Shown one piece after another: positions 4,542-56,914 of a stretch of 56,914 nucleotides of DNA; position 1 is the first letter of the stretch; each line of letters opens with the position of its first letter. Below the pieces are notes generated by a model. It was not told where the DNA came from and made no database searches. It saw only the letters and a list, made by a program, of their open reading frames with translations. The stretch comes from Pyrinomonadaceae bacterium (GTDB lineage Bacteria > Acidobacteriota > Blastocatellia > Pyrinomonadales > Pyrinomonadaceae). Location of the stretch: positions 1-56,914 of the forward strand of contig DATLOR010000012.1 of NCBI GenBank assembly GCA_035536135.1. The letters run 5' to 3'. Both the position numbers and the translations under genes were made by a program.

Positions 4542-6008
4542 CTATTTACCGACCGTTTCGACAATCGCTTGCGCGGCTTGTTCGACGACCGGCGAGATGA
4601 TGTCTTCGCCTGCCGATTTGGCTTTCGATTTGAACTGTTTCGTTAAAGCGACTGTTCCGCCGTTTTTCAAACTGATGTCGAGCGTCAATTCGTCTTTCGG
4701 TTTGATATTCGAAGTGGCGGCAACCACGGATGTCACGGCGACCTGTCCGGCGACATTGCCCGCCGTATTGCCCCAGGCTCCGCCGCCGGTCTGCGCGACG
4801 ACCGCCCCGAGCGCTTTACCGAAACCGAAACCGCCGCCGCCTTTTTTGTGCGAAACCGTTGCGTAAAGCACGTAATCGCAGTCCTTTTCCTTGGCTTCGG
4901 CGTCGATCGCCGATTGCAGTTTGGCTTCGAGCTGAACGATCTCGACTTTTGTGCCTTTCAGATATTGCGCTAAAGAATTTTGAATCGCGCCGGCAAGTTC
5001 CGCCGCATTGACGCCTTCGCCGACCGCACCGGTTTTGACGCTCGCCAGACCGATCCGAACCGTGCCTTCTTTTTTCGGTTCGACCGTCGAAGAAGTAGAA
5101 TTATTGCTTTCGCTTCTTTGCGAATTCATCGTGCTGATCGTCGAATTCATACTCGAATTATTCATCGAGGAATTCTGGCTCGTCGAGCTGTAGGAAGTTG
5201 TCGAAGTCGAACTGCTGCTGCTCGAAGACATTGAAGCATACATACTTTGCGCGTCTTTGACTTCGCGCCAGCCGTCGGGAATTTCAAATAAAGCCTGATC
5301 GAGCGTGGCGTTCGCCAGTTCGAGAACTTCGTTGGTCATCGTGAAAGTTTCTTTATCATTGGCGTCGAACATTGTCATTTTTTCCAAAACCGGATAACCG
5401 CGCTTGGTCACGCTGCCGATCTGTTTGACGTTGTATTTATCCTGGCAGCCGCCCGATTTGCTGTTGTTGTAATAACCGGCGCGCGTGCCGTAATCGCAGT
5501 CGAGCGCGAAAGCCGCGTCAATATACCAGCCGTCCGTCACCATTTTCGATTTCGGCATCGGTGTGCAGGCGTCGGCTGAAGCTTCGGTTTCGGTCGTGAT
5601 GATCAAATGACGCGCATTGTAGCCGAACATCTTTTTCGTTTCGCCCGTGTCTTTGGTCGTAATTGTCGTTGTGATCACGCCGCCCTTTTTGACTTCCGTT
5701 TTGGTGTTGCCCGATTGGGTCGTCTGCGTCGGCGTCGTCGAATCGTTTTCCCACGAATTGATGATATAAACCTGTGTTTGCGGGTTGAGCTGAACACTGC
5801 GCTTCATATCGCACTGCGTCAGCGTAACCATCGTTCCCGTGCCGACATTTTGCTCGGTGCGTGAGCGTTTGCCTTTGATATAAGTCGTGTTTTCAGTAGA
5901 TTGTCCGCTCATCGTCATACGGCTTTTAACTTTGACGTCGGCGAAAGCGGTGATTGATAAAGTTACGGTTAAGATTGCGAATAAAATATATTGAACTGAC
6001 TTTTTCAT
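4542..6008 (-). CDS. secreted protein of unknown function with Ser/Thr/Asn-rich linker
   Basis: ORF track lists 4542..6140. I moved the start to MKKSVQYILFAILTVTLSITAFA (ATG 6008), which gives a signal peptide and removes the overlap with the divergent sigma gene. A low-complexity SSSSSSSTSTTSYSSTSQNSS linker sits at about nt 5090..5245. No family recognised. Confidence 0.75.
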   Translation of the reverse strand: MKKSVQYILFAILTVTLSITAFADVKVKSRMTMSGQSTENTTYIKGKRSRTEQNVGTGTMVTLTQCDMKRSVQLNPQTQVYIINSWENDSTTPTQTTQSGNTKTEVKKGGVITTTITTKDTGETKKMFGYNARHLIITTETEASADACTPMPKSKMVTDGWYIDAAFALDCDYGTRAGYYNNSKSGGCQDKYNVKQIGSVTKRGYPVLEKMTMFDANDKETFTMTNEVLELANATLDQALFEIPDGWREVKDAQSMYASMSSSSSSSTSTTSYSSTSQNSSMNNSSMNSTISTMNSQRSESNNSTSSTVEPKKEGTVRIGLASVKTGAVGEGVNAAELAGAIQNSLAQYLKGTKVEIVQLEAKLQSAIDAEAKEKDCDYVLYATVSHKKGGGGFGFGKALGAVVAQTGGGAWGNTAGNVAGQVAVTSVVAATSNIKPKDELTLDISLKNGGTVALTKQFKSKAKSAGEDIISPVVEQAAQAIVETVGK

Positions 6009-7202: not shown

Positions 7203-10200
7203 ATGAGTCCAGAACGATGGCAAAAAATTGAAGACGTTTTTCAATCGGTCGTTGACCTCGCGCCCGAAGAACGCGTGTTGTATCTCAACGAAAATTACGC
7301 CGATGACGCGGATTTGATCGCCGAGATCGAGCGTCTGATTTCCGATTACGAAGACGCCGGAGATTTTATCGAATCGCCCGTTTGGACCGACAGCTTTATG
7401 CTCGGCGCGACCGCCCGCGACCAGATCGGCGATGCTTTAAACGAAGAAATCAAAAAAGATAACGGTTCGATGATCGGCAAACGCCTCGGCGTTTACGTGC
7501 TCACCAAAGAGATCGGGCGCGGCGGAATGGGCGCGGTCTACCTGGCGGAACGCGCCGACGGCGAATTTCGCCAGCGCGTTGCTTTAAAGGTCATCAAACG
7601 CGGCATGGACACCGATTTTATCGTTCGCCGTTTTCGCAACGAACGCCAAATCTTAGCCTCGCTCGACCATCAAAACATCGCCCGCCTCCTGGACGGCGGC
7701 ACGACCGACGACGGTTTGCCGTTTTTCGTCATGGAATACATCGAAGGCTCGCCCGTTTACAGTTATTCCGACGCGAAAAAATTAAGTATCAACGAGCGTT
7801 TGCGTCTTTTTATCCGGATCTGCAACGCGGTCGATTACGCGCACGAAAACCTGATCATTCACCGCGACATCAAACCGACGAACATTCTCGTGACGGGCGA
7901 CGGAATGCCGAAACTGCTCGATTTTGGGATCGCGAAAATTCTCGATCCCGAGCTTGCCGCCGATTCGATCGACCCGACGGCGACCGCGATGCGGATGATG
8001 ACGCCCGAATACGCGAGCCCCGAACAGGTGCGCGGCGAAGCGGTCACCAAGGTCAGCGACATTTATTCTCTGGGCGTTCTGCTTTACGAGCTTCTCTCGG
8101 GACATCGCCCGTATCGTTTGAAAAATCGCGCTTTGCACGAGATCGCCCGCGTGATCTGCGATGAAGAACCCGAAAACTTGGGTTCGAGCCTGACGCGTGA
8201 AGATAATCTCGTACCGACCAGCGCCAACAATGAAAAAATCACGCTCGAAGCGATTTTTGCGAGCCGCAATGCGAGCCGCGAAAGTTTGCAGCGCGAGCTT
8301 TCGGGCGACCTTGAGCGCGTTGTGTTCAAAGCGCTCCGCAAAGACCCTCATGAGCGTTATCAATCTGCGAAGGAAATGGCGGAAGACGTCGCGCGTTATC
8401 TCGAAGGGCACTCGGTTCTCGCACCCGCTTCTTACCCGTCGAAAGCCGCTTTCACGCAGAGTTTGCACAAAACCAACCCCGACGAAATATCGGTTGCCGT
8501 ACTGCCTCTGAAATTGTTCGGTGCGGCGGCGAACGAAGAGACGGGCGACGATTATCTGTGCATCGGTCTGGCGGACGCGCTGATCACGCGGCTTTCAAAC
8601 GTGCGGCGTTTTGTCGTGCGCCCGACGAGCAGTGTTTTGAAATACGGAAACGCCGACACCGAACCGATCACGGCGGGCGAAGAGCTCGGCGTAAATTATC
8701 TGGTTGACGGCAATATCCGGCGCGTCGGGACGCGTCTGCGCGTGACGATCCAGCTTTTGAACATTCAGGAAGGCGCGGCGCGCTGGGCGGAAAAATTCGA
8801 CGAGGAATTTACCGACGTTCTGACGCTCGAAGATCTGATCTCGGAAAAAATTGCCGAAGCCCTGATGCCGCAGCTGACGGGCGACGAGCGCAATCAACTG
8901 AAAAAACGCGGCACGAACAGCGCGGAAGCCTTCGAGCATTACCTGCGCGGACGCCATTACTGGAACAGTTTCACGGAAGATGGTTTTGCCAAGGCGATCA
9001 TCGCTTATTACCAGGCGATCGCCCACGACCCGGGATACGCGCTCGCCTACGCCGGAATCGCCGATTATCACAACTGGCTCGGCGTCTACGGCGTTTTGCC
9101 GTCGAAGGAATGCTTTCAATCGGCGGTCGAAAACGCGCGCACGGCAATCGAGCTCGACCCGGAATTGGGCGAAGCCTACGCCTCGCTTGCGTTTGCCCAG
9201 CACGGCGGAGCCTTTGAATGGGAAGAAAGCGAACGGAATTTTCAAACCGCTCTGCGGCTTAATCCGAACGTTGCGGAAACGCACGTCTGGTATTCGATCA
9301 AGCTGACGACCGAAGGACGTTTTACGGAAGGCATCAAACACGCGGCGCGGGCGATCGAGCTCGACCCGCAAACGCCTTTTAATCAGCATAATCTCGGCTG
9401 GGTGATGTATTACGCGCGCCAATTCGACAAAAGTCTGCGGCAATACCTGAAAACCGCCGAAACATTTCCTTCGTATCCGCTCGCGCATTACGGATTGGCT
9501 TGGGTTTTGCGCTATCTCGGACGTTTTGACGAAGCCGTCAACGCCGCCAACCGCGCCCAGCAATTGATGAGCGAAAGCATTTTTTCGCTGCACGTTCAGG
9601 GACAGACTTTTGCCGCCGCCGGAATGCGCGAGCAGGCTGAGGTAATCTTAGAAAAACTCGATAAATTATCCGAACGGCAGTTTGTTTCGTCCTATCACAC
9701 GGCTTTGATCTACGCCTATCTCGACGAAAAAGAAAAAGCGATCGAGCTTTTGGAAACTTGCCGGCAAACTTCGGATGCGTGGCTGGTCTGGCTCGGCGTT
9801 GAACCGGCGTTCGACAGCTTGCGGGCAGATCCGCGTTTTAAGGCGGTGATGGAGCAGACAAAAAATCCGATCCTCAAACGCGACGCCGATTTCACGGAAA
9901 AATCCAACCCGACGATCGCCGTTTTGCCGTTCAAGGTGATGAATCAATCAAGCGAAACGAGTACGGACGACAAGTTTTTGGGTGTCGGTCTGGCAGACGC
10001 GCTGATCACGCGGCTTTCGAATGTCCGAAAATTCACCGTCCGCCCGACGAGCAGTGTTCTGCGCTACGACACGGAAAATAATCCGTTCAGCGCCGGTGCG
10101 GAGCTCGGCGTGGATTTTTTGATCGACGGCAATATCCGGCGCATCGGCGAAACGCTCCGCGTGACGGTTCAGCTTCTCTCGATCGAACAGGGCGCAACGC

Positions 10201-46366: not shown

Positions 46367-48100
46367 TTACGGCGCAACGTTTTTGACCGACGGATTCGGA
46401 CGCGCCCGGGTTGTCGTGTCAATGAAAAATAACCCGTCAAATTCCTTATTCAGCGTTTTCAGCGGATACGGAGTCGCTTCAAAGCTCGGCGTATAACCCG
46501 AACCGACCGAGCGGAACTGGCGCGGCGTGCTGAGCCATTCGGTGATTTCTGCCGTTTGACGCACAGCACGAAAATCTATGATAAAACTTTTCACGCCCGT
46601 TTGCGCTTCATACCATTCGATCGAATCAGGAATTGCCGGACCCACTGACCACGATTTTAACATGACTTTGCCTGCATCTTGCGGCTCTTGTTCACGTGCT
46701 TGAAACGCGCCCTGATTAAAGCTAAAACCGAGCGCGTAATAACTTTTGCCGTAAAGGCGGCGCAGGTGAGAGCCCAAAGGCTGATAACCGTCGGATTCAC
46801 CGGTTTGTATGTGACCGTTGTGCGCCCAGACGACAAAGCGCGTGTTCGCCGTTTCGCGGTTCACGATACGGCGCAGATTATCCGCCATATAAAGATCGCG
46901 CGTTGCCACGCCTTTTCTCCAATCAGTATAACTGTAGGAATCGAGATACTGCGCGATAACGCGCGCCAGCTCGAACATCCGTTCATATTCCGCCTGACTC
47001 GATTTTGCGACGAGATTCGCGCCGTTGAGGTCGAGAAAAACCAATAGTTCGTTGTATTTATTTTTCAAATCATTGAATTTCGCGGGCGCGTCCTTGTCTT
47101 TTTGTTCAAAAATCGCTTCCGCCGTCTCTTCTTCGCTGATTTTGAAAAGCGTTTCCGCATCCGCCGTGCGTTCCGGCGCGACGCGCTTTAAATATTCGAG
47201 CAGTTTCGTTTTGCCCGTCTTATTTATTTGAATATCAAAGCCGACAAATTTTACCTTTTTGTTTGCCGGAACGCTTTTATTATACTCGCGCATCCAGTCG
47301 ATCATCGCCCGCACTTCCTCGGTGTTCCAGGTCCAAAAACCCTGCGAATCGAGAGCCTTCGCGCCGTCGTCCGATCTGCCCATCACGTAATCATTGATGT
47401 TTTCGCACGCCGAATAGCTCGCTTCGATGGCAAACACGCGAAAACCCATTTCTTTGACCAAAAATTCGAGCATTCGATGTTTGAATCGAAAAAATTCGCG
47501 CGTACCGTGCGTCTGTTCGCCCAAACCGACAAAGCGCACGTCTCTGAAAACCTGTTTGAGCGGCTGCAAATCTGCAAAACCGTTTCCGGCTTCGACGGTT
47601 TTAATCGGAATCAGATCATTTTTCAGCCACGAAATAACGGCTTGCTGTTTGCGCTTAAGTTCGGCGAGCCGTTTGGCGTTCGCTTTCGGGGAAAGCAGTT
47701 CGTTGACGCGAATTTCGTAGCGTCCCGATTTGGCAGTTTTCGCCTGTCCAAACCGACTGACTTCGATGCGGTACACGCCCGCCGTTTTTGCTTCGAGCCG
47801 GATCGGTTCATCGCCCTGATCGCCGTTCGGCGAATCAATCTCGGCAACTTTCGAATTATCCGGCGCGAAAACCTGCACGACGACATCGATTCCGCGCTGA
47901 TTGACCGCCGCATCCAGAAATTCGCCGTTTTTGAGCGTGATTTGGTAAACGTGTGTTTCACCTGCCTGCATTTCGCGCTCAACCGGCTTCCCGGGTTCCG
48001 GCATATTGTAAGTTTGTGCGAAAACGCTAATCCACAAAGCGAAAATCATTACAAATAATCGTAAAATATACATTATATTTTTAAGGCTTATCTGTTTCAT
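46367..48100 (-). CDS. secreted erythromycin-esterase (Ere/ChaN-like) family protein with N-terminal PPC-like domain
   Basis: ORF track, 577 aa. Family signature: VGLGEQTHGTREFFRFKHRMLEFLVKEMGFRVFAIEASY. Confidence 0.8.
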   Translation of the reverse strand: MKQISLKNIMYILRLFVMIFALWISVFAQTYNMPEPGKPVEREMQAGETHVYQITLKNGEFLDAAVNQRGIDVVVQVFAPDNSKVAEIDSPNGDQGDEPIRLEAKTAGVYRIEVSRFGQAKTAKSGRYEIRVNELLSPKANAKRLAELKRKQQAVISWLKNDLIPIKTVEAGNGFADLQPLKQVFRDVRFVGLGEQTHGTREFFRFKHRMLEFLVKEMGFRVFAIEASYSACENINDYVMGRSDDGAKALDSQGFWTWNTEEVRAMIDWMREYNKSVPANKKVKFVGFDIQINKTGKTKLLEYLKRVAPERTADAETLFKISEEETAEAIFEQKDKDAPAKFNDLKNKYNELLVFLDLNGANLVAKSSQAEYERMFELARVIAQYLDSYSYTDWRKGVATRDLYMADNLRRIVNRETANTRFVVWAHNGHIQTGESDGYQPLGSHLRRLYGKSYYALGFSFNQGAFQAREQEPQDAGKVMLKSWSVGPAIPDSIEWYEAQTGVKSFIIDFRAVRQTAEITEWLSTPRQFRSVGSGYTPSFEATPYPLKTLNKEFDGLFFIDTTTRARPNPSVKNVAP

Positions 48101-48103
48101 TTT

Positions 48104-48166
48104 GAAATTCCTCGTGCTTGCGAACGGCTTTTCAAACCGTTGTTTTTTGTTCTGCTGGATTCAAAT
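48104..48166 (-). pseudogene. relic of the aminotransferase 5' end (first about 20 codons; ATG to TTG, premature TGA)
   Basis: 48104..48163 matches 44011..44070 at 51/60 nt with no gaps. The relic reads TTG AAT CCA GCA GAA CAA AAA ACA ACG GTT TGA, against the real MNPTEQKTTVS. Confidence 0.85.
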
Positions 48167-48189
48167 ATTTAATTCTCTATTTTAGCTGT

Positions 48190-48549
48190 TGAAATAAAAA
48201 AGAAAACCGGTCGGCGAACTCTTCGTCGAGCTGTTCCCGGGTCGTCCCGCTGCCCGTGCCCCGTATCAATAATCGACACGCAGCCAAACCTGCTTGCCGC
48301 TTGCGGAAGCCGCCGGCAAACGCCCCGTCGCTTCTAAATCTTCCATTCAACGATCCGGATCAACGATTTTCACGCCGAAATATTCATTCGTGACGCTATC
48401 AATCCGCGCTTTCGCCGGCGTGTTTTGGGCAAGATCCGCCGAATAAAAAAAGTAAGCGGCAATAGGCAGACGACAATCAACGAAAAGCTATGCGCTCGAT
48501 GTTTGCGCAGAGCTTTCGAGATCTTTATTTTTTGCGCTGCCGAATACAT
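48190..48549 (-). pseudogene. decayed N-terminal fragment of an S9 prolyl-oligopeptidase-like gene
   Basis: Good RBS (GGAGACC-ATG at 48549). Translation is MYSAAQKIKISKALRKHRAHSFSLIVVCLLPL...ARIDSVTNEYFGVKIVDPDR*MEDLEA. The family N-terminal motif G.K..DPYRWLED is present but its Trp codon is TGA. The frame is lost afterwards, and the ORF track has no ORF of 60 aa or more here. Confidence 0.45.
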
Positions 48550-48822
48550 GGTCTCCTTACAAACTGCTTAAATAAATTCGCCTGAAACGGCTTGCCGGAA
48601 CGAAAATTTAAGATATCTCATTAGGTGCGCTAAAATATACGAAAATTGCTCCAAAAAATCAACAAAACCGTTGAAAAAGCACTTTAACCTGGCATTAAAA
48701 ATATGATAGTTTGTCTGCGGTTAAAATTGCCGCACATAAACTATCACTTTTTAAGTTGCGCATTACGCCTTTTTTTTGATATAAAATCTATTCGTCTTGT
48801 GAAAGACGCGATTGACATCTAA

Positions 48823-48898
48823 GCCATCCTAGCTCAGCTGATAGAGCATTCGATTCGTAATCGAAAGGTCGTGGGTTTGAATCCCATGGATGGCTCCA
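48823..48898 (+). tRNA. tRNA-Thr: tRNA-Thr (anticodon CGT), CCA encoded
   Basis: Cloverleaf read by eye. Acceptor GCCATCC/GGATGGC, D arm GCTC-AGCTGATA-GAGC, anticodon arm TTCGA-TTCGTAA-TCGAA, variable loop AGGTC, T arm GTGGG-TTTGAAT-CCCAT, discriminator T, then CCA. Confidence 0.9.
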
Positions 48899-48924
48899 TT
48901 ATTTTCAATAAACTAGCTAAAAAG

Positions 48925-48956
48925 AAGAGCATCAATTTCGATGCTCTTTTTGTTTT
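48925..48956 (+). terminator. rho-independent terminator after tRNA-Thr
   Basis: AAGAGCATC-aatttc-GATGCTCTT followed by TTTGTTTT. Confidence 0.8.
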
Positions 48957-49339
48957 GGTGTTTCAGTGGAGTGCCAAATTTCAGCTCTTCTTTTTGGCTC
49001 TAATCTTTGTATAAAGCAAGGATTCCAACCTAGACTATGTTTCAGTCATTGCTGGAGAAAAGAAGATATTTTGCGGCAGGAAAATACTCCCTCGCAATCT
49101 TAACAAAACAATTCCGCAAAAGGTTTCGGTTTCAGCACAAATGATAGGCCGAATGCTGATTCGTAAAAATCTGGAAATGATAAAAATGCACGTGCACGGC
49201 ATTTTGCCGGCGGCAAAGAGTTATGTAATATGTAGCTCTTCAGTCAAATCAGTTTCTGCAATACCGCCGGAAAAACTGATGTTGAGATTGCGAGTGCCTC
49301 CCCAAATGTGACCAAAATGTGTCAAAATATTCAGTATAA

Positions 49340-49373
49340 ATAAAACAACTACGCTTCGGCGTAGTTGTTTTAT
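49340..49373. terminator. orphan perfect hairpin (15-bp stem, TTCG loop) with T-runs on both strands
   Basis: ATAAAACAACTACGC-TTCG-GCGTAGTTGTTTTAT. No ORF of 60 aa or more lies on either side within 48957..49470. Confidence 0.6.
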
Positions 49374-49470
49374 TCTGCTAAGTTGTCAGGCGCGCAGCCG
49401 GCTTTGATAAATTGGTAGATAGCGTTTAATCTGTGACATAGAAAAATATTCTGAGACAAAAAGGCAAAAG

Positions 49471-50952
49471 ATGACTTTATCCAAACGTTGGTTTTATATT
49501 CTTTCTTCCATCATAGCTATTATTCTAATACTCCCTTTGCTCGCTCATGCCTACATAGGATTTTTTTCCAGATATTGGTGGGACGATTTCTGTACCTCCG
49601 GATTCTTGCATCAAAAAGGATTTTGGGGATCCCAACTGTACTGGTACACAAGTTGGTCAGGAAGATTTTCTTTTCACATTATTGTTAATATTTCCGAGAT
49701 GCTCGGAACCTGGACTGTAAAGTATTTGCCCTCTTTAGCCCTAATAAGCTGGGGAGCCGTAACCACCTGGACGATCTATCAAATATTTAAAATTAACAGT
49801 CTCAGATTTCCTCTAATCAGCTCATTTTTACTGACGCTGCTCATCATATTTTCAACACTTAACAGCACTCCCGACATTGTTCAATCATTATATTGGCAAG
49901 CAGGTATGCTTTCATACCTGGCTCCCCTCATTATCCTGTCAACCTGGATCGGAGTTTTGGTTTATGCGTTAAGAAAAGAATCATCGGGGCGAAGTCACAA
50001 ATTATTAATACTAGTAGTTTTTGTTCTCACTTTTATTAGTGCCGGCTTATCGGAACCCTACGCTTTCCTGCAATTTGGCGTTTTAGGAGTTTTAATCCTC
50101 ATTAATTTGGTTTACTTTTCCCCTCAATTTAAAAGAATTGCCTTACCCATGATTCTAGCCGGATTTTTAGGTGGAGGAATCGCGTTTTTAATTGTTTTTG
50201 CGGCACCCGGTAATAAGGGAAGACAAGCTACGCTGCCTCCGCCGGCTTCCCCGGTTTCAGCGATAAAATCATCGTTTTCCTATACATTAAACTTCGCTGA
50301 AAGACATTCCCGACGCTCACGGTCAGCGGCACTATTATGCTTGATTTTTCCGGCTTGGATAGCCTTGATGCTTTATTATACTAATGATGACAAACACAAT
50401 GCTTCACCTGAATCCAATATAAATATAAAAACCGCCCTAAAAATAGCCGGGTTATGTATTGTTTTCGGGTTCCTTTTGATGTTTATCTGTTTTGTGCCGG
50501 CTTTTTATGCTTTGTCCGATTCGCTGCCGTTGCGGGCACAGATCATTCCGAAATTCGTCCTGGTTAGTTTTATGGTGTTCGTTGGGTGGATCTTTACACA
50601 GGCATTAATAAATACTTTTGCCGATAACCGGAAATTTAAATCATTAAGCTTAATTGCAACATCGATAATCGTCGCAGTATTACTGGTACTTTCACCGATC
50701 ATTGCTGCTAAAAACACTTTCGCCCTGGGAAATAAAGCGAAGGATTATGCTGTTAGATGGGATGCCATTAACCAGCAGCTGGCGGAAGCGAAAAACAACG
50801 GGTTAAGCGATGCCGTCATCCCAAAAGTAACCGCCGATGAATTTGATCTGGGATATGGACGTCCTGATTTGCAGCCCGCTGAGAAACCGCACGAGGGTCC
50901 CAATTATTGTATAGAAATATACTATGGTTTGGATTCAGTCAGAACGGAATAA
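49471..50952 (+). CDS. polytopic integral membrane protein (GT-C glycosyltransferase-like topology; function unknown)
   Basis: ORF track, 493 aa with about 11-12 hydrophobic helices. There is an early aromatic-rich loop (YWWDDFCTSGF...YWYTSWSGRF) and a soluble C-terminal tail. AT-rich. Confidence 0.8.
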   Translation: MTLSKRWFYILSSIIAIILILPLLAHAYIGFFSRYWWDDFCTSGFLHQKGFWGSQLYWYTSWSGRFSFHIIVNISEMLGTWTVKYLPSLALISWGAVTTWTIYQIFKINSLRFPLISSFLLTLLIIFSTLNSTPDIVQSLYWQAGMLSYLAPLIILSTWIGVLVYALRKESSGRSHKLLILVVFVLTFISAGLSEPYAFLQFGVLGVLILINLVYFSPQFKRIALPMILAGFLGGGIAFLIVFAAPGNKGRQATLPPPASPVSAIKSSFSYTLNFAERHSRRSRSAALLCLIFPAWIALMLYYTNDDKHNASPESNINIKTALKIAGLCIVFGFLLMFICFVPAFYALSDSLPLRAQIIPKFVLVSFMVFVGWIFTQALINTFADNRKFKSLSLIATSIIVAVLLVLSPIIAAKNTFALGNKAKDYAVRWDAINQQLAEAKNNGLSDAVIPKVTADEFDLGYGRPDLQPAEKPHEGPNYCIEIYYGLDSVRTE

Positions 50953-51188
50953 AATTTAAAGTTACAAAGATCTTGTAATCCGAATTTGTTTCTTCTCTCA
51001 AAATTACAAAAACTGTTTTCTATATTCCATAGAATTTCCAGTGCTAAAATGCTGCAGAAATTTGCAAAAAATATGAATTGCCTTAATTGAGCGATATACC
51101 GCACCCCGCAATTAAAAAAGGTGTAACATTTTCTCGGCTTTTTTCATACAAAAATAGAATCAATCACAGGTTTGTAGGGAGATAAACT

Positions 51189-53315
51189 ATGCAGGGAATA
51201 ATGGAGTTATGTACGGCAGAATACACGGCAAATCAGGTTGGCAAGACTGTTTACGTCATTGCCTACGGGAAACACCCGCACAATCGCTACGAGGTCGAAT
51301 TGGAAAACACGCCGAGCCCGGTTTTTGTTCCGCGTTTTCAATTAACACACAAATTACTGACCGGAAAGCTCATTGAGTTAGAAACGAAATTTGCCGTTTT
51401 TAAAAGTTTTTCTTCAGATCAGCAGATCGGGATGGTGACGGTTTCTGATGCCGATGGAGAACATCAAATTGGCGTCGAACAAACACCTGATTTTCAGATC
51501 GAAGCCGAAATAAAAAAACTGCTTAAAAAAGAAATTAGGTATGACAAGTTATCTGCTAATCTGGCATCTATTGCTCATGATTATGAGAAGGGCGGATTGA
51601 CTACCGTCAAAGCATCGTTGGTGCCGGTAACTCCGCTTTCGATACCCTCGGTTGGCGGAACGCCTGAAGCCATCATTTTTATACGCTGCAAGGAAGACGC
51701 CGAGATCAACTTGAACGGGGTCCAGGTAAATTCTCCGCAGGGTGAAATCCGAACCGCCAAAATATCGCTCGATGCGTTGGAAACCTTAAGTCAGGATGAG
51801 AACATTTTTCAGCTTGATGCAGCAGTTAAATATTCATTCTTAAATGATATCGCGGCGGAAAAAACCCAGTTGAAAAATTTTCGCCTGCAACATCCGGACT
51901 TAAACGGTGAGGGCGTGATTATTGGAGTTATTGACAGCGGAATCGACAGTCTTCACCCGAGTTTTGCAGGTCGCATATTGAGTATCTGGGATCAGGAGAT
52001 TCAGGGACTGGGTTGGCAGGACGAAAACTCCCCTGACAAGCGTTGGGGGAAAAAATCCTATGGTCAGGTTTTAACGGGAGAATTTCTTAAGGTCAGCATT
52101 GATAAAGTGGGGCACGGAACCCATGTGGCGGCGATTGCCGCCGGCGATGATGAAGAATTCCAAGGAGTGGCGCCGGGCGCCGATTTGATAATTGTTAAAA
52201 CCAGTCTTAATCAGGCGCATATTGCCGATGGAATCGAGTATATATTTTCCGAAGCCGACAGATTAGGCAGACCCGCCGTTGTCAATTTAAGTATCGGAAG
52301 TCATCTGAACGCCCATGACGGAACTGATTTTTTATCAGCAAGAATCAAGGATATCTATAAACGAGTTACTGACGGAAAAATTATCGTCGCGGCTGCCGGT
52401 AACGAGGGAAACAATAACATTCGCGGGGCAATTGTAATCCCGCCCAAACAAACCGTCGAACTCGAGTTTGCGATCTTGCAAAATTCGGCGGGTTTTGTTC
52501 CGCCGTGGGCTTTATTCAGCGGCTGGTATCAGGGTAATACGACCTGTGAGATCAGTGTGCGTCCGCCAAAGGGAATCGCCACTCCGTATAAAGGAGTCAG
52601 CGATACCGAAAGCCCGACACAAGTGTCGATTGTCGGGAATGTAATTATTACCATAACAACGCCGTCAGTTTCGGCATCTCCCAACGGGGATCGTGAAATT
52701 CAAATAAAATTAGAATCTGTAAGTAAGGAATTGCCAAAGGGGAAATGGGAGATCATAATTCGCAATACTGGGGAGAATGAAGCATCACTTGACATATGGT
52801 CAATGGTCGACGAAAGATTCAAAGACGCCGAATTTTTCCCGGCTTTTAAACGCGATGATATGAAAATTGGCTCGCCCGGCTGCACCGGCGAGGTAATCAC
52901 AGTTGCTGCCTATACCACGAGAAACCGTTGGATTGATGCGAAGAATAATGACCGACCCAAAAATCCTTTTAATGTCGATACTATCTGGGAAGGCAGCAGC
53001 CCCGGACCGTTGCGCAACGGCTCCCTAAAGCCTGATATTGCTGCGCCCGGAGTAATGATTATTTCGGCTTTGTCAAGTCTTTCAACTCCTTCGGAAGACA
53101 CTCTGATTAATCAAAAATTTGTAGTCAAAGCGGGAACAAGTATGGCTTGTCCGTTCATTGCCGGATTATGTGCGCTGTTGTTACAGCGCGACCAAACATT
53201 GACTGCGGATGCAATCAAGACGATTCTCCGAAAAAATGGTCAAATTCCTGAAAAAGATCCGGAAACTCACGATATTAAATGGGGATACGGGTTGGTTGAT
53301 GTTGCGAAATTATAA
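51189..53315 (+). CDS. S8 subtilisin-like serine peptidase, no signal peptide, with about 240-aa N-terminal extension
   Basis: ORF track, 708 aa. Catalytic triad motifs: VIIGVIDSGID (Asp), HGTHVAAIAAG (His), GTSMACPFIAGLCALL (Ser). The N-terminus MQGIMELCTAEYT has no hydrophobic h-region. Residues about 160-220 look like an I9-type propeptide. Confidence 0.88.
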   Translation: MQGIMELCTAEYTANQVGKTVYVIAYGKHPHNRYEVELENTPSPVFVPRFQLTHKLLTGKLIELETKFAVFKSFSSDQQIGMVTVSDADGEHQIGVEQTPDFQIEAEIKKLLKKEIRYDKLSANLASIAHDYEKGGLTTVKASLVPVTPLSIPSVGGTPEAIIFIRCKEDAEINLNGVQVNSPQGEIRTAKISLDALETLSQDENIFQLDAAVKYSFLNDIAAEKTQLKNFRLQHPDLNGEGVIIGVIDSGIDSLHPSFAGRILSIWDQEIQGLGWQDENSPDKRWGKKSYGQVLTGEFLKVSIDKVGHGTHVAAIAAGDDEEFQGVAPGADLIIVKTSLNQAHIADGIEYIFSEADRLGRPAVVNLSIGSHLNAHDGTDFLSARIKDIYKRVTDGKIIVAAAGNEGNNNIRGAIVIPPKQTVELEFAILQNSAGFVPPWALFSGWYQGNTTCEISVRPPKGIATPYKGVSDTESPTQVSIVGNVIITITTPSVSASPNGDREIQIKLESVSKELPKGKWEIIIRNTGENEASLDIWSMVDERFKDAEFFPAFKRDDMKIGSPGCTGEVITVAAYTTRNRWIDAKNNDRPKNPFNVDTIWEGSSPGPLRNGSLKPDIAAPGVMIISALSSLSTPSEDTLINQKFVVKAGTSMACPFIAGLCALLLQRDQTLTADAIKTILRKNGQIPEKDPETHDIKWGYGLVDVAKL

Positions 53316-53341
53316 GGCAAAGCCGGGTAGAGTAAACATTT

Positions 53342-53611
53342 ATGAATTTTCAAAAGATTGACGCGTCATTATCGGCAGCCTTGCACGGGAAACATTTTAC
53401 GGATGAGCCTGATTTTATCGTTTTTATCCAAACGACGAAACCACTCGATGATGAACAAAGAGAAGAATTAGAAAAACTCGGCGTGATGGATATTCCCGTC
53501 AAAAGCGATATTTTTTCGGCGCAAATTTCAGCAAGGGCGGTTGCGGAAATTTCGGAAAAACCCTGGGTAAGATTTATTTCACTCTCGGAGCATCTTAGAC
53601 TTTTAGATTGA
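53342..53611 (+). CDS. free-standing subtilase-propeptide-like (I9-like) small protein
   Basis: ORF track, 89 aa, starting 26 nt after the S8 stop. DFIVFIQTTKPLDDEQREELEKLGV...IFSAQISARAVAEISEKPWVRFISLSEHLRL follows the beta-alpha-beta-beta-alpha-beta pattern of subtilase prodomains. It parallels residues 160-220 of the neighbouring peptidase. The function call is by pattern only. Confidence 0.55.
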   Translation: MNFQKIDASLSAALHGKHFTDEPDFIVFIQTTKPLDDEQREELEKLGVMDIPVKSDIFSAQISARAVAEISEKPWVRFISLSEHLRLLD

Positions 53612-53773
53612 ACTTTAGCTCTGTTCCTAAAATTTATCCTACTTACAAACAGCTACTTACAAACAGTTTGTTTCACCCAAGAATTGTCTGCCCTGCCGCA
53701 ATTTAATTTCGCTAAAACTGCAGAGTCTCTTTCATTTCAAGTTTCAAGATAATTATTAATTGAGAGAATCAAA

Positions 53774-53808
53774 ACGCAGCGATCAGCCGTGCAGGCTGAT
53801 CGCTGCGT
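53774..53808 (-). terminator. rho-independent terminator after 53854..54639
   Basis: ACGCAGCGATCAGCC-gtgca-GGCTGATCGCTGCGT (15-bp stem). TTTTGATT follows on the minus strand. Confidence 0.8.
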
Positions 53809-53853
53809 AAAAGATCTTTTAAAGGGGAGTCAGATAAAAAATCAGCTATCCTC

Positions 53854-54639
53854 TTACGGCAAGCTGTCTGCGACACTTGCGACAAATATATTACAGGGCA
53901 GCCCCGGCTCGCCTTCCACAACATTATCTTGAAAGGAAAAACCTGTAAATACCGCTTCGACGGCGCCGGGCTTCTGTGTCGGGTCGCGGTCAACAACAAA
54001 CTTTTTGTCCGGCTCTGAAGCGTCTTCAACTATCTCGTACAACTTTTCGAAATCGCTTGGCTGGTCCTCTGCCAGCATATGTATTTCGCCGTCCGGTCCG
54101 ATTTGCTCTTCTAAGTTTCGGGGACATATGTTATCGAAAATGATTAATCCGTCCTGGTCAAAAGTTTTCGGAAAACCTGAAACTCCCTCTGCTTCTACAA
54201 TAACTTTCTCGCCGGTAATTTCAGCTTTTCCCGAGTAGCCGATGACCTTAGGCGGGATCGTAACATTTTCGTCGTCCATCAATTGAAATCTACATCTGGT
54301 AAATTCAAAAACTGAAAATTTTGCATTTTCAATCGACAACAAAACGGATTTATCTGCCAAGCTGCCCTTTGGTTTTATACCATTTTGATGAGAGTGCTTT
54401 GACGTAATGTCGAGAAACTCGCCGAAATTATCACCGATCTCAAAAGCGGAGGTCGGGTTTTCGGCTCTAATTCTTATCTGTCTCCCGGTTCCGGCTAAAG
54501 GAACACCCGCCTCATTTTCAGACAATTTGAATTTTACTAAATGACAATCATCGAAAGGAAAAAGTACTTTCCAAATATCTTGTCCCTGCTTAAAATAAGC
54601 CAATGCAATACCTCTTATAATAATCCTTACAGTTACCAT
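53854..54639 (-). CDS. hypothetical 261-aa protein, no signal peptide or TM, downstream of TPR-CHAT
   Basis: ORF track. AAGGAG RBS 8 nt upstream of the ATG. Predicted beta-rich composition. No motif recognised. Confidence 0.75.
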   Translation of the reverse strand: MVTVRIIIRGIALAYFKQGQDIWKVLFPFDDCHLVKFKLSENEAGVPLAGTGRQIRIRAENPTSAFEIGDNFGEFLDITSKHSHQNGIKPKGSLADKSVLLSIENAKFSVFEFTRCRFQLMDDENVTIPPKVIGYSGKAEITGEKVIVEAEGVSGFPKTFDQDGLIIFDNICPRNLEEQIGPDGEIHMLAEDQPSDFEKLYEIVEDASEPDKKFVVDRDPTQKPGAVEAVFTGFSFQDNVVEGEPGLPCNIFVASVADSLP

Positions 54640-54898
54640 ATAATTATCTCCTTCTCTTACTAAAATTAAAATTTAATTACCGACAGACAAAATCGAAATA
54701 ATTCGTTTCACTACAATTTATTGAACGGCGTTCTCATTTAGAAATAGCCTCCGAACCGTTCGAGAACCATTTAATATTCAGGGTTGCGCAATTCCTGCGG
54801 ACCTCGATTAAACCTTAAGCAACTAGATCTAAGCTCTCATCTATTACATGTTTTTTGAGGTGAAAATGTTACATGTCTGATCGTTACTTTTAATAAAA

Positions 54899-56914
54899 TT
54901 AATAGTCGGCATATCCTCCGAAAACGGCAAATGCCGCCCAGAAATATGCCGATTGAAATCTTTTGTCCGGCGTCCGGATCATATCCAGCTGGGCTTGTCG
55001 TAAAGCTTGCGTCGTGGAAAGACTTTTTCCCCGGCGATAATAATGAAATTTTTTCATCAACGCGGAGGTCGCTTCCGATTCGACTTCCCAGGCGCTGGCG
55101 ACGACGAGCGGGACGCCCGCCGCCAAAAATGTCCGGGCGAGCCCGATCAATCCTTCGCTGTTGTAATAGCCTTCAATCCCGGTCTGGCATGCCGAAAGCA
55201 CTACCAGCTTGGTTTGGGGAAGTCTTTCGCCGCGCAGCTCCCGGTTAGTTAGAACGGAGTCCTCGGCTTTTTCGCCGCTTTTTGCCATCACTAGTTTCGA
55301 CAAAAGCGGCGAATCCGCTTCGACAATGTAATGTCCGGCAAAGTGAATAACTTCAAAATTTTTATAGAGCGTCAAAAATGCGTTTTTGGTGGCGGCGCGT
55401 TCCGATAACACCTCGGACTTCGGGTAATTTCTTCTTATCTCCTGAGCTTCGGTTTCACGCAGAACGTCCAATTTCGGAAAACGCTCCCTGTCAAAAACGG
55501 GATTGTCGATACTTAATAGCTTTTCTTCTTTAATCTCGGCTTTTACGCTTGCGTTTTGAGTGTCGCTGATAAATACGCTGGCGCTCGGCGAATAAAAAAA
55601 AGTGAATTCTTCAAGGAAAAATTTTCCGTCCGGAGCGGTAAGAGATTGAAACGGCAGCCGGAATAATATCTTATTGGGAACGATACAAATCTGTTTGGAT
55701 TCGTCAAGAAAAAGCCGCGCGGGCGCGATGAGCAAATTATAAAATTCGCGGGATAAGGTCGTTACGGCATCTTCGTTTTGCGGGTCATTAGTCTCAATCA
55801 ATTTGAGATATTTTTCAGTTTTTGTCTTCAGTTCGTTCGCGTCGATTTCCGATGAAAAAGACACCGCTTTTTCTTTCGAGATCAGCCAGATCAAAACTTT
55901 CTTGTCCAGCACCCGGAACTGTAAGATTTGAACTTCCGGCGGCATCGCTTCCCGGATTTGGTTGATATCGAGAGGCGCCGCCGGATTTTTAAAGTCGTCT
56001 TCCGTTCCTTTGACGAGCCAGTCAAGGAGCGACCGCGAACTGGAAGCCTCAGTATAATTATAAGCCCGCTCAAAATTGTTCCCGCGCATTTCGTGTTCGA
56101 TGGCAAGGTCGTAAACGGACTGCTCGTTATCAAAAAATGTGTTTCGGTCATCCTCGGTGGTGATTTGTTTCCGGTAATTTTCGGCAAGTTCGATAACCGA
56201 AGGGATTTCGGGTTCCGTCTGATCCTCTTTGCCCGCCGCCTGAAAATTAAACAATCTCGATTTTTTAATTTCATAAAGCAGCGGTGATTTGCCGTTTTTT
56301 TTCGAAAGTTCCAACGCTTCATCATAGTAAACGGCAGCTTGATTATAATTATTTCTTCTTCCTTCCAAGTTTCCCAGGTTTAAGAAAATTTTGGTTAAAT
56401 TTGCGGTTCGATCGGTTTCTTCCGGAAGGCTTTCGGCGTCCTGACGGGCTTTGAGAAACCATTTCTCGGCGTCTTCAAAGTTTTGGGTTTGAGTATTGAA
56501 GATGCCGGCATTAATTTCGGCGCCGATGGCAAACGCCGGGTCGGTCTGGGCTTTTGCCAAAGCGACGCTTTCTCGCATAACGGCGCGCGATAACCCGATG
56601 TGTGAGCCGGTTGCCAGTATCTGGATGATTTTATCGAAGCCCCTGAATTTTTGACGGAGACTTAAATTGGGCAGGGTGGAAATTTCCAGTAATTCTTTCA
56701 GGTACGCGTAAGTCTTCTTTTCCTGTTTAACAGTATGGCTCTTCAAGAGAAGCGACAGTAAAAATTTCTGCATCATATAAAAATCCCCCATCTGACGGGC
56801 ATTTTTTAGCGCATTTTCGTACTGATTCTGGGTTTCGGTGATTGATTTATAGCCGAGATATTCCTGACTGCCGAGCCACCAGTAAAAATTCATGAGCGCG
56901 AACCACCGGTAACC
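54899..56914 (-). CDS. TPR-CHAT (caspase-like) protease, 5' end beyond window
   Basis: ORF track lists 54899..56893, but the frame stays open upstream to the window edge (GYRWFAL-MNFYWW). N-terminal TPRs are followed by CHAT catalytic dyad motifs VIHFAGHY (His) and LVVLSACQTG (Cys). Confidence 0.88.
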   Translation of the reverse strand, partial: GYRWFALMNFYWWLGSQEYLGYKSITETQNQYENALKNARQMGDFYMMQKFLLSLLLKSHTVKQEKKTYAYLKELLEISTLPNLSLRQKFRGFDKIIQILATGSHIGLSRAVMRESVALAKAQTDPAFAIGAEINAGIFNTQTQNFEDAEKWFLKARQDAESLPEETDRTANLTKIFLNLGNLEGRRNNYNQAAVYYDEALELSKKNGKSPLLYEIKKSRLFNFQAAGKEDQTEPEIPSVIELAENYRKQITTEDDRNTFFDNEQSVYDLAIEHEMRGNNFERAYNYTEASSSRSLLDWLVKGTEDDFKNPAAPLDINQIREAMPPEVQILQFRVLDKKVLIWLISKEKAVSFSSEIDANELKTKTEKYLKLIETNDPQNEDAVTTLSREFYNLLIAPARLFLDESKQICIVPNKILFRLPFQSLTAPDGKFFLEEFTFFYSPSASVFISDTQNASVKAEIKEEKLLSIDNPVFDRERFPKLDVLRETEAQEIRRNYPKSEVLSERAATKNAFLTLYKNFEVIHFAGHYIVEADSPLLSKLVMAKSGEKAEDSVLTNRELRGERLPQTKLVVLSACQTGIEGYYNSEGLIGLARTFLAAGVPLVVASAWEVESEATSALMKKFHYYRRGKSLSTTQALRQAQLDMIRTPDKRFQSAYFWAAFAVFGGYADY

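Follow-up and report, generated by a model that had tools for sequence, protein, structure and literature searches.

Near the end of a 56,914-nucleotide stretch of DNA from a Pyrinomonadaceae bacterium (contig DATLOR010000012.1; the whole stretch is called the window below), a gene for a TPR-CHAT caspase-like protease is followed on the same strand by a gene for a 261-residue protein, designated X. What does the protease do to, or for, the protein encoded next to it? A sequence-only reading of the window had proposed a protease-activated effector module, in which the CHAT protease cleaves its neighbor as in bacterial gasdermin or type III-E Csx30 systems. We compared the window with other loci (labeled L001 to L017) and came to a different answer. 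We consider it fairly probable that the segment makes up the downstream two-thirds of a self-contained DdvS/DdvA-type cassette, consisting of a sigma factor of the extracytoplasmic function (ECF) group, its anti-sigma factor and their output, in which the CHAT protein senses a signal and regulates X and is not the enzyme that cuts it.

The TPR-CHAT open reading frame (ORF) occupies positions 54899-56914 of the minus strand and is open at the window end, as the sequence-only reading had noticed. Its 671 codons most likely represent the 3' part of an anti-sigma factor gene and encode the distal TPR region and the CHAT domain (Pfam: CHAT, E 2e-60, plus TPR matches). The His-Cys dyad is intact, with the His codon of HFAGHY at 55331-55333 and the Cys codon of SACQTG at 55187-55189. 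The fragment was colinear with residues 514-1186 of the 1186-residue orthologue in L001, with 69% identity; hence, about 510 residues of the anti-sigma factor are expected to fall off the window. Beyond the window end would lie the anti-sigma domain, a transmembrane (TM) helix and the first TPRs within these ~510 residues, and the ECF sigma gene. A second contig with an identical X carries, in order, genes for a 188-residue protein, an 1184-residue TPR-CHAT protein and X, and convergent genes for an 89-residue protein and an S8 subtilase.

The upstream part was examined in the full-length CHAT orthologues, which are 47-69% identical and share one layout: an anti-sigma domain of the zf-HC2 type, one TM helix and then TPR-CHAT. 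A match to zf-HC2 (PF13490) was found at the N-terminus of all six full-length orthologues, in three of them above the Pfam gathering cut-off, and each of the six has exactly one strong TM helix at approximately residues 109-152, the N-side flank of which is richer in Lys and Arg. The CHCC zinc site is absent from this domain: HFLISDERRKK or a similar sequence stands where HxxxCxxC is expected, and both Cys residues are missing. Furthermore, the solved chain of DdvA (8rot_B) matched the L001 orthologue with an E value of 3e-7. Directly upstream of the anti-sigma gene, a gene for a protein of 188-193 residues was found in L001-L005, L007, L008, L012 and L014; these proteins are divergent ECF sigma factors that matched the NCBIfam sigma70-ECF model over their full length (E 4e-11 to 2e-6). 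Judging from this sequence layout, the TPR-CHAT protein of the window most likely forms the sensor half, facing outward, of an anti-sigma factor in the membrane. As the anti-sigma domain and the single TM helix precede TPR-CHAT, the protease domain is predicted to be extracytoplasmic. X has neither a signal peptide nor a TM helix, and direct cleavage of X by CHAT is accordingly unlikely on topological grounds.

Two further features of the anti-sigma orthologues were observed. After the TM helix, all of them carry a juxtamembrane motif, LNxAYxxERP[LF]ExRIxxLxYAP (e.g., residues 150-180 in L001), which is a candidate self-cleavage or docking site by analogy with the same region of DdvA, for which autoproteolysis has been proposed. 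In two independent assemblies, L011 (~5440-5500, A10) and L016 (~3600-3750), TPR and CHAT are encoded by separate genes, the anti-sigma gene being broken at the same lysine-rich poly-A tract. We considered whether these split genes give a soluble cytoplasmic CHAT protein and rejected this, as both breaks sit in the poly-A tract and the reading continues in another frame. They are therefore treated as frameshifts, probably homopolymer sequencing errors, with slippage or phase variation as the alternative.

The gene for X directly follows the CHAT gene in the window, with a gap of 259 bp, as the sequence-only reading had also described (about 260 bp). X was located directly downstream of the CHAT gene in all 13 contexts that show the upstream side, the flanks being unrelated, and the linkage persisted in X proteins with as little as 24% identity to that of the window. 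The genes are ordered sigma, anti-sigma, X in L001-L005, L007, L008, L011, L012, L014 and L016, and CHAT is followed by X in L017. The full five-gene set, again with unrelated flanks, is present in L001, L005, L007 and L008, and L009 and L010 show the portion with X, the 89-residue protein and S8. In distant relatives (24-32% identity of X; L002/L003, L004, L012 and L014), the first three genes are kept and S8 is absent. The gap between the anti-sigma gene and X is 26-37 bp in the distant loci L002, L012, L014 and L017. These results support the view that CHAT and X are a conserved functional pair. The sequence-only reading had suggested looking for STAND/NTPase or cas genes upstream of TPR-CHAT; none of these was present in the loci, where the gene upstream proved to be that of the ECF sigma factor. 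Likewise, none of the loci contained the Pfam families of the cyclic-oligonucleotide-based antiphage signaling system (CBASS) or of type III-B CRISPR-Cas. An alignment-based scan of genomes gave four Acidobacteriota loci in metagenome-assembled genomes (MAGs). The MAGs that gave genome matches belong to Pyrinomonadaceae and to an uncultured Acidobacteriota bacterium, and the named members of the X clusters come from the same groups. Nearly all sequencing runs containing the region come from soil metagenomes; these are DNA runs, and no RNA run was among them.

The control of X was examined through its promoter region. In six loci, the regions upstream of X and of S8 have a block in common, TGTAACATTTT-N11/12-TCATAtAA, that is, GTAAC and CATA separated by 16-17 nt, which resembles an ECF-type promoter. 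The site ahead of X in the window (54844-54873, minus strand) reads TGTAACATTTT-N11-ACATGTAA, with GTAAC as the -35 element, 17 nt and CAT as the -10 element; it starts 26 nt past the stop codon of the anti-sigma gene and 233 nt upstream of the start codon of X. The site ahead of S8 (51122-51151, plus strand) reads TGTAACATTTT-N11-TCATACAA and begins 67 nt before the start codon of S8. A weight matrix was built from the shared sites, and 20 shuffles of the window were used as the background. The S8 site scored 27.7 (51122, plus strand), the maximum of the window, and the X site 26.2 (54873, minus strand); the shuffles never exceeded 17. The motif lies in register ahead of both X and S8 in L001, L005, L007, L008 and L009, and additionally ahead of X in L011 and ahead of S8 in L010. 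The distance from the S8 start codon to GTAAC is fixed at 62-66 nt; the X site lies 103-268 nt upstream of X, leaving a long leader. A variant, TGAAACATTTT...CATATAT, is located exactly at the junction of the sigma stop and the anti-sigma start in L001, L002/L003, L004, L005, L007, L008 and L014. In loci with only 26-82 bp between the anti-sigma gene and X, transcription of X from the junction site is expected. Ahead of the sigma gene itself stands a site of the TTGACT-N17-ATAAAC type. The GTAAC motif would be recognized by the adjacent ECF sigma factor. Because X has its own ECF-type promoter, which is shared with S8, the link between CHAT and X is best read as that of a sensor and a regulated gene.

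The next-best site in the window (54259-54286, plus strand) scored 19.1, slightly more than the best shuffle (17), has a poor -10 element and lies antisense within the coding region of X. Copies of the motif divergent from the S8 promoter were observed in L009 (4530, plus strand; score 27.2), ahead of a gene for a 226-residue GH46 chitosanase-like protein, and in L007 (11749, plus strand; score 20.3), ahead of a gene for a 419-residue protein. The regulon may include locus-specific extra genes.

The X gene (53854-54639, minus strand) has its own ribosome-binding site, AAGGAG, at 54653-54648, eight bases ahead of the ATG, and a long 5' leader (54640-54843) that matched no Rfam family. It ends in an intrinsic terminator with a T run (53765-53808, minus strand; 15-bp stem at 53808-53774 with 10 G-C pairs), located between the convergent X and 89-residue protein genes. 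These elements agree with the ribosome-binding site and the strong terminator that the sequence-only reading had pointed out. A first, word-indexed search gave only 13 relatives of X. When a profile hidden Markov model of X was used to scan 1.84 billion cluster representatives, 275 clusters (50% identity) were found at E<=1e-3, nearly all members of which are stand-alone proteins of 230-340 residues. The structure predicted by AlphaFold2 was all-beta, with a predicted local distance difference test (pLDDT) score of 83 and a predicted template modeling (pTM) score of 0.83 from 13 sequences, and of 93 and 0.91, respectively, from 95 sequences. On account of the 275 clusters and this confident model, X is considered a real gene, and it is the founding member of an uncharacterized all-beta family.

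The beta-rich, soluble character that had been read from the sequence was thus borne out: the predictions gave neither a TM segment nor a signal peptide in X, S8 or the 89-residue protein, and the N-terminus of X, which is conserved and confidently modeled, forms a beta-strand instead of a signal peptide. It is likewise correct that X has no N-terminal Cys and no motif that can be named, as it had no match in Pfam, PADLOC or NCBIfam, and the 95 members had no convincing Pfam family. The X profile gave no match against PDB sequences or BFVD, fold searches including Foldseek gave no similar structure and no resemblance to gasdermin or Csx30, and no relatives were found in the phage and plasmid collections. 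The gasdermin identity suggested by size and context is therefore not borne out, and no housekeeping fold emerged from the fold searches either. As for the proposal of a new effector or substrate class, the family is new, with no match in Pfam, PDB or BFVD, and X may be an effector.

Six residues are invariant in the 95 sequences, P28, H33, H84, N170, C172 and C249; the codons of H33, H84, C172 and C249 are at 54541-54543, 54388-54390, 54124-54126 and 53893-53895 of the minus strand, respectively. The two invariant His and two invariant Cys residues suggest a metal or active site which may include the tail through Cys249. Between the domain and the tail lies a linker (residues 228-245; 53905-53958, minus strand) modeled with low confidence, with a pLDDT below 50 from 13 sequences and of ~73-89 from 95 sequences. 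Its length varies across the family (54-111 residues from the FDNxC motif to the tail Cys), and in the model it is a candidate protease-accessible segment. In contrast, the C-terminal tail (residues 246-261, GLPCNIFVASVADSLP; 53857-53904, minus strand) is conserved, with the family motif G[LK]PC[NHLM]xVxxSxxxxLP, and the protein typically ends 12-14 residues past the tail Cys (C249). The tail was modeled as docked, adding a strand (residues 251-254) to the domain with a pLDDT of 94-98 at residues 250-261. A globular domain, a linker and a docked tail, as modeled, would suit activation by cleavage. Between loci, the identity was 43-47% for X, 59-69% for CHAT, 49-54% for S8 and 52-58% for the 89-residue protein. 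As X diverges faster than the other three, an effector role fits it better than a housekeeping role.

Some loci or family members carry more than one copy of X or of its tail. In L004 (10001-13671), four tandem X paralogues of 284, 287, 242 and 263 residues, the 242-residue copy being nearly linkerless, follow one sigma/anti-sigma pair, and in L012 (7118-8765) two tandem paralogues do so; these paralogues matched the family profile in hhalign with E values of 1e-40 to 1e-48. P0013, a partial protein of 286 residues on a 1196-bp metagenome contig of the Joint Genome Institute (JGI), has six tandem copies of the tail motif, GLPC[NHY]hV+AS+xxxLP, separated by spacers of ~20 residues (AGTTLDPEEGVTLR...). 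In one L004 paralogue, P0062 (10996-11859), the called N-terminus TPYYRAAFSAFGGYANY resembles the conserved C-terminal end of CHAT (AYFWAAFAVFGGYADY in the window), which suggests a duplication of a segment spanning the 3' end of the CHAT gene and X. Between CHAT and X, short frames resembling the N-terminus of X were also observed in L007 (KRILDHWRFLFPID, 8067-8130; tblastn E 0.1-0.5) and L009 (MARFTISIKGVGMNYRK, ~800-870). These frames may have been left by a decayed copy of X formerly located directly after the anti-sigma gene.

Convergent on X, and as the sequence-only reading had it, lies a pair of plus-strand genes. The first encodes an S8 subtilase of 708 residues (51189-53315; Pfam E 5e-42) with the catalytic triad in the S8 order (DSGID, residue 249; HGTHVA, residue 309; GTSMA, residue 649). 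It has an N-terminal region of ~230 residues outside known families and an insert within the S8 domain, as in CspB and Tk-SP. The second (53342-53611) encodes the 89-residue protein, begins after a 26-nt gap and always follows S8. Its residue pattern, FIVFIQT..DDEQREELEKLG..IFSAQIS.ARAVAEISEKPWVRFISLS, is beta-alpha-beta-beta-alpha-beta-like, and by this pattern the protein resembles a free-standing subtilisin I9 prodomain, though encoded by a separate gene downstream of the protease. It had no Pfam match, and the profile search of the PDB returned designed proteins only and no I9 prodomain. The two genes are next to X in the window, in the second contig and in seven other loci, among them L001, L005 and L007-L010. 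In L011, which belongs to an uncultured Acidobacteriota MAG, a gene for a 587-residue C14 caspase-like protein is located 22 bp after X instead; this protein has the HG and DSCHSGG motifs and no signal peptide. Together with the C25-type peptidase of Myxococcus described below, three protease families occur at the equivalent position, which suggests a proteolytic step within the output. X, with its exposed linker, would be the obvious candidate substrate of the neighboring protease.

From these findings, the following scheme is proposed. The cassette would consist of genes for the ECF sigma factor (~188 residues), the anti-sigma factor (~1185 residues) and X, with the operon of S8 and the 89-residue protein convergent to them. 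The anti-sigma factor would be composed of a cytoplasmic non-zinc anti-sigma domain, one TM helix and an extracytoplasmic TPR-CHAT part, which may sense an extracytoplasmic signal. As in the model proposed for DdvA, CHAT would then cleave its own anti-sigma factor, followed by intramembrane proteolysis. The freed sigma factor would read the putative GTAAC-N16/17-CATA promoters of the anti-sigma gene, X and S8, so that X and the cytoplasmic subtilase would be made together. In X, a beta protein with a new fold, the invariant His33, His84 and Cys172 and the tail Cys249 may build a metal or active site closed by the docked C-terminal tail, and the co-induced protease (S8, or C14 in one relative) may cut the linker, freeing the tail and activating X. 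Of the protease-activated effector module proposed earlier, the conserved CHAT-X pair, the recurring S8 or C14 genes and the linker-tail layout are thus retained, and CHAT as the cleaving protease is not. X may still be a protease-activated effector, with S8 or C14 as the candidate protease.

Several points weigh against this scheme. The GTAAC motif and its conservation are seen in the sequences, and its use by the adjacent sigma factor is presumed. There is no terminator between the anti-sigma gene and X, so read-through also occurs. The sigma gene, the anti-sigma domain and the TM helix lie outside the window and are derived from the orthologues and from the gene table of the second contig. 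It is not obvious how an autoinhibitory tail would account for the six-tail variant P0013. Finally, X has no adjacent protease in at least four loci (L002/L003, L004, L012 and L017); as several loci lack one, proteolysis is either not obligatory for X or carried out by a protease encoded elsewhere.

Other explanations were weighed against the same evidence. The strict adjacency of CHAT and X in all visible contexts, the intact His-Cys dyad, the flexible linker and docked tail in the model of X, and an ECF sigma gene in the cassette, like RpoE in type III-E systems, would all be expected if TPR-CHAT cleaved X directly, X being a gasdermin-like or Csx30-like latent effector or a sigma-sequestering substrate. 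This is nevertheless very unlikely in our estimation, as the anti-sigma domain and the single TM helix place CHAT outside the cytoplasm, X has no export signal and no gasdermin, Csx30, PADLOC or fold match, its promoter is its own and is held in common with S8, and none of the loci has cas genes. The claims that CHAT cuts the protein encoded next door and that the context is Csx30-like are, accordingly, not upheld. X could also be a non-proteolytic stress protein, for example with a metal or redox His2Cys2 site and induced by envelope stress, S8 and the 89-residue protein then being a quality-control protease that is co-regulated but otherwise unrelated. Stress-protective proteins are common in ECF sigma regulons, X has four invariant potential metal ligands, and several of its loci contain no protease. 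The recurrence of proteases of different families beside X speaks against this, however, and both the faster evolution of X relative to CHAT and S8 and its tandem arrays are more in keeping with an effector or conflict protein than with a housekeeping buffer; we regard the stress-protein explanation as unlikely.

The six tandem tails of P0013, with their ~20-residue spacers, are the main support for yet another explanation, in which X is a self-contained precursor resembling ribosomally synthesized and post-translationally modified peptides (RiPPs): the beta domain would be a large leader or an autocatalytic modifier, as in borosins, and the Cys tail a core released by S8 or C14. S8 proteases mature several RiPP classes, and the tandem paralogues (four in L004, two in L012) and the predicted position of the tail on the domain beside the invariant residues also agree with this. 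Cores are usually variable, whereas few parts of the X family are as conserved as the tail; moreover, the loci contain no conserved modifying enzyme or exporter, many of them lack a protease, and S8 reached only 17.7 bits against the PatA/PatG model TIGR03895, for which the cut-off is 421. We therefore consider a RiPP-like precursor distinctly unlikely. Least probable of all, and hardly to be expected, is that X is a third regulatory component, such as one that feeds back on the sigma factor or on the cytoplasmic domain of the anti-sigma factor. X is strictly co-inherited with the sigma/anti-sigma pair and is co-transcribed with the anti-sigma gene in the distant loci with gaps of 26-37 bp; yet it is unlike known anti-sigma or anti-anti-sigma proteins, and arrays of up to four diverged copies would be unusual for a stoichiometric regulator.

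The favored reading, a DdvS/DdvA-type cassette, rests on a comparison with Myxococcus xanthus, in which DdvA is a transmembrane anti-sigma factor with a periplasmic TPR-CHAT part (PDB 8ROT; PMC11506125). DdvA was described as the only characterized TPR-CHAT anti-sigma factor, with DdvA-like proteins only in Myxococcota and one Comamonas (PMC11506125). DdvS-dependent promoters share GTAA-n16-CGT (PMC6061681), and the ddvS-ddvA operon continues with an uncharacterized protein and a C25-type peptidase (PMC11506125). As in that system, the sigma gene precedes an anti-sigma gene whose product has an anti-sigma domain, one TM helix and a TPR-CHAT part of ~1000 residues with a His-Cys dyad; the motif found here, GTAAC-N16/17-CAT(A), a putative promoter of the sigma factor, is close to that of DdvS; and an uncharacterized protein and a cysteine peptidase (C25-type) follow in the Myxococcus operon too. 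The cassette differs in its phylum, Acidobacteriota, in an anti-sigma domain without the CHCC zinc ligands, and in a sigma gene whose promoter appears to be of the housekeeping type and not autoregulated. Its output is the X family, with or without S8 and the 89-residue protein or C14, unlike the DdvS/DdvA regulon of CBASS and type III-B CRISPR-Cas.

Other known systems share some features with the cassette. Like a bacterial gasdermin, X is beta-rich, has about 250 residues and is predicted to fold a short C-terminal segment back on its domain, and interchangeable families (subtilase, caspase-like) supply the protease encoded next to it. Unlike gasdermins, it has no N-terminal Cys and no similarity to them in sequence or fold, the proteases here have no fused repeat or NTPase sensor domains, and the system would be gated transcriptionally by the sigma factor. 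In the type III-E Craspase, Cas7-11 acts with the TPR-CHAT protein Csx29 to cleave Csx30, which frees the ECF sigma factor RpoE (PMC10028731). There too, TPR-CHAT, an ECF sigma factor and an uncharacterized partner are encoded together, and proteolysis is likewise expected to release the sigma factor here. The X loci, in contrast, lack both cas genes and a CRISPR array, X shows no relationship to Csx30 or Csx31, and Csx29 is soluble and activated by RNA, whereas the TPR-CHAT protein here would be membrane-anchored and fused to an anti-sigma domain. The ECF54 contexts, in which an ECF sigma factor occurs with carboxypeptidase, subtilase and CHAT proteins nearby, were described without an anti-sigma factor (PMC8999054). 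Common to both is an ECF sigma gene with subtilase and CHAT genes in a conserved neighborhood, and here it is the CHAT protein that bears the anti-sigma domain. S8 is closest in sequence to subtilases of the CspB/CspBA and Tk-SP types, with which it shares an insert in the catalytic domain and the lack of a secretion signal; it differs from them in scores far below the family cut-offs, in the extra N-terminal region of ~230 residues and in the separate downstream gene for the 89-residue protein, and the organism is no spore former. Finally, unlike the short precursors with variable cores of cyanobactin-type RiPPs, X is a folded domain of ~230 residues with a conserved tail.

Taken together, the locus most likely represents a DdvS/DdvA-like cassette, in a phylum new for this kind, that has a non-zinc anti-sigma domain and a dedicated, co-regulated output including a new protein family. 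The TPR-CHAT anti-sigma architecture would thereby extend to soil Acidobacteriota. The output is a compact gene set, not a large defense island, which makes it simpler for studying which signal is detected and how CHAT releases the sigma factor. X itself represents a new family of 275 clusters with four invariant His and Cys residues and a clamped tail, always tied to the sensor and often adjacent to a protease; if it is activated by a protease, it would be a new effector class. A bolder form of this reading, which we regard as rather unlikely, is that Acidobacteriota carry a widespread, transcriptionally gated effector pathway made of a TPR-CHAT anti-sigma sensor, an ECF sigma factor, the latent effector X and an activating cytoplasmic protease. 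The sensor would detect an invader or an envelope insult and release its dedicated sigma factor, and X would be a cysteine-clamped latent effector of a new fold, served by interchangeable proteases (S8, C14 and possibly C25 in Myxococcus). Such a pathway would be a functional analogue of the gasdermin-protease or CRISPR-protease modules built from unrelated parts. For annotation, the cassette indicates that a repeat-fused CHAT gene beside a small gene of no recognized family is not necessarily a protease-substrate pair.

The surroundings of the cassette in the window include a gene for a 577-residue erythromycin-esterase-family protein with an N-terminal PPC domain (46367-48100, minus strand) and a gene for a 493-residue DUF6056 membrane protein (49471-50952, plus strand). 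Neither is kept beside the cassette in the other loci, and neither has the promoter motif ahead of it. The G+C content of positions 48001-56914 is 0.40-0.45 vs ~0.50-0.55 across the remaining window. The cassette likewise has a lower G+C content than its flanks in L001 (0.43 vs 0.52) and in L004, whereas no such drop was observed in L007 and L008. The low-G+C cassette may be a horizontally mobile module.

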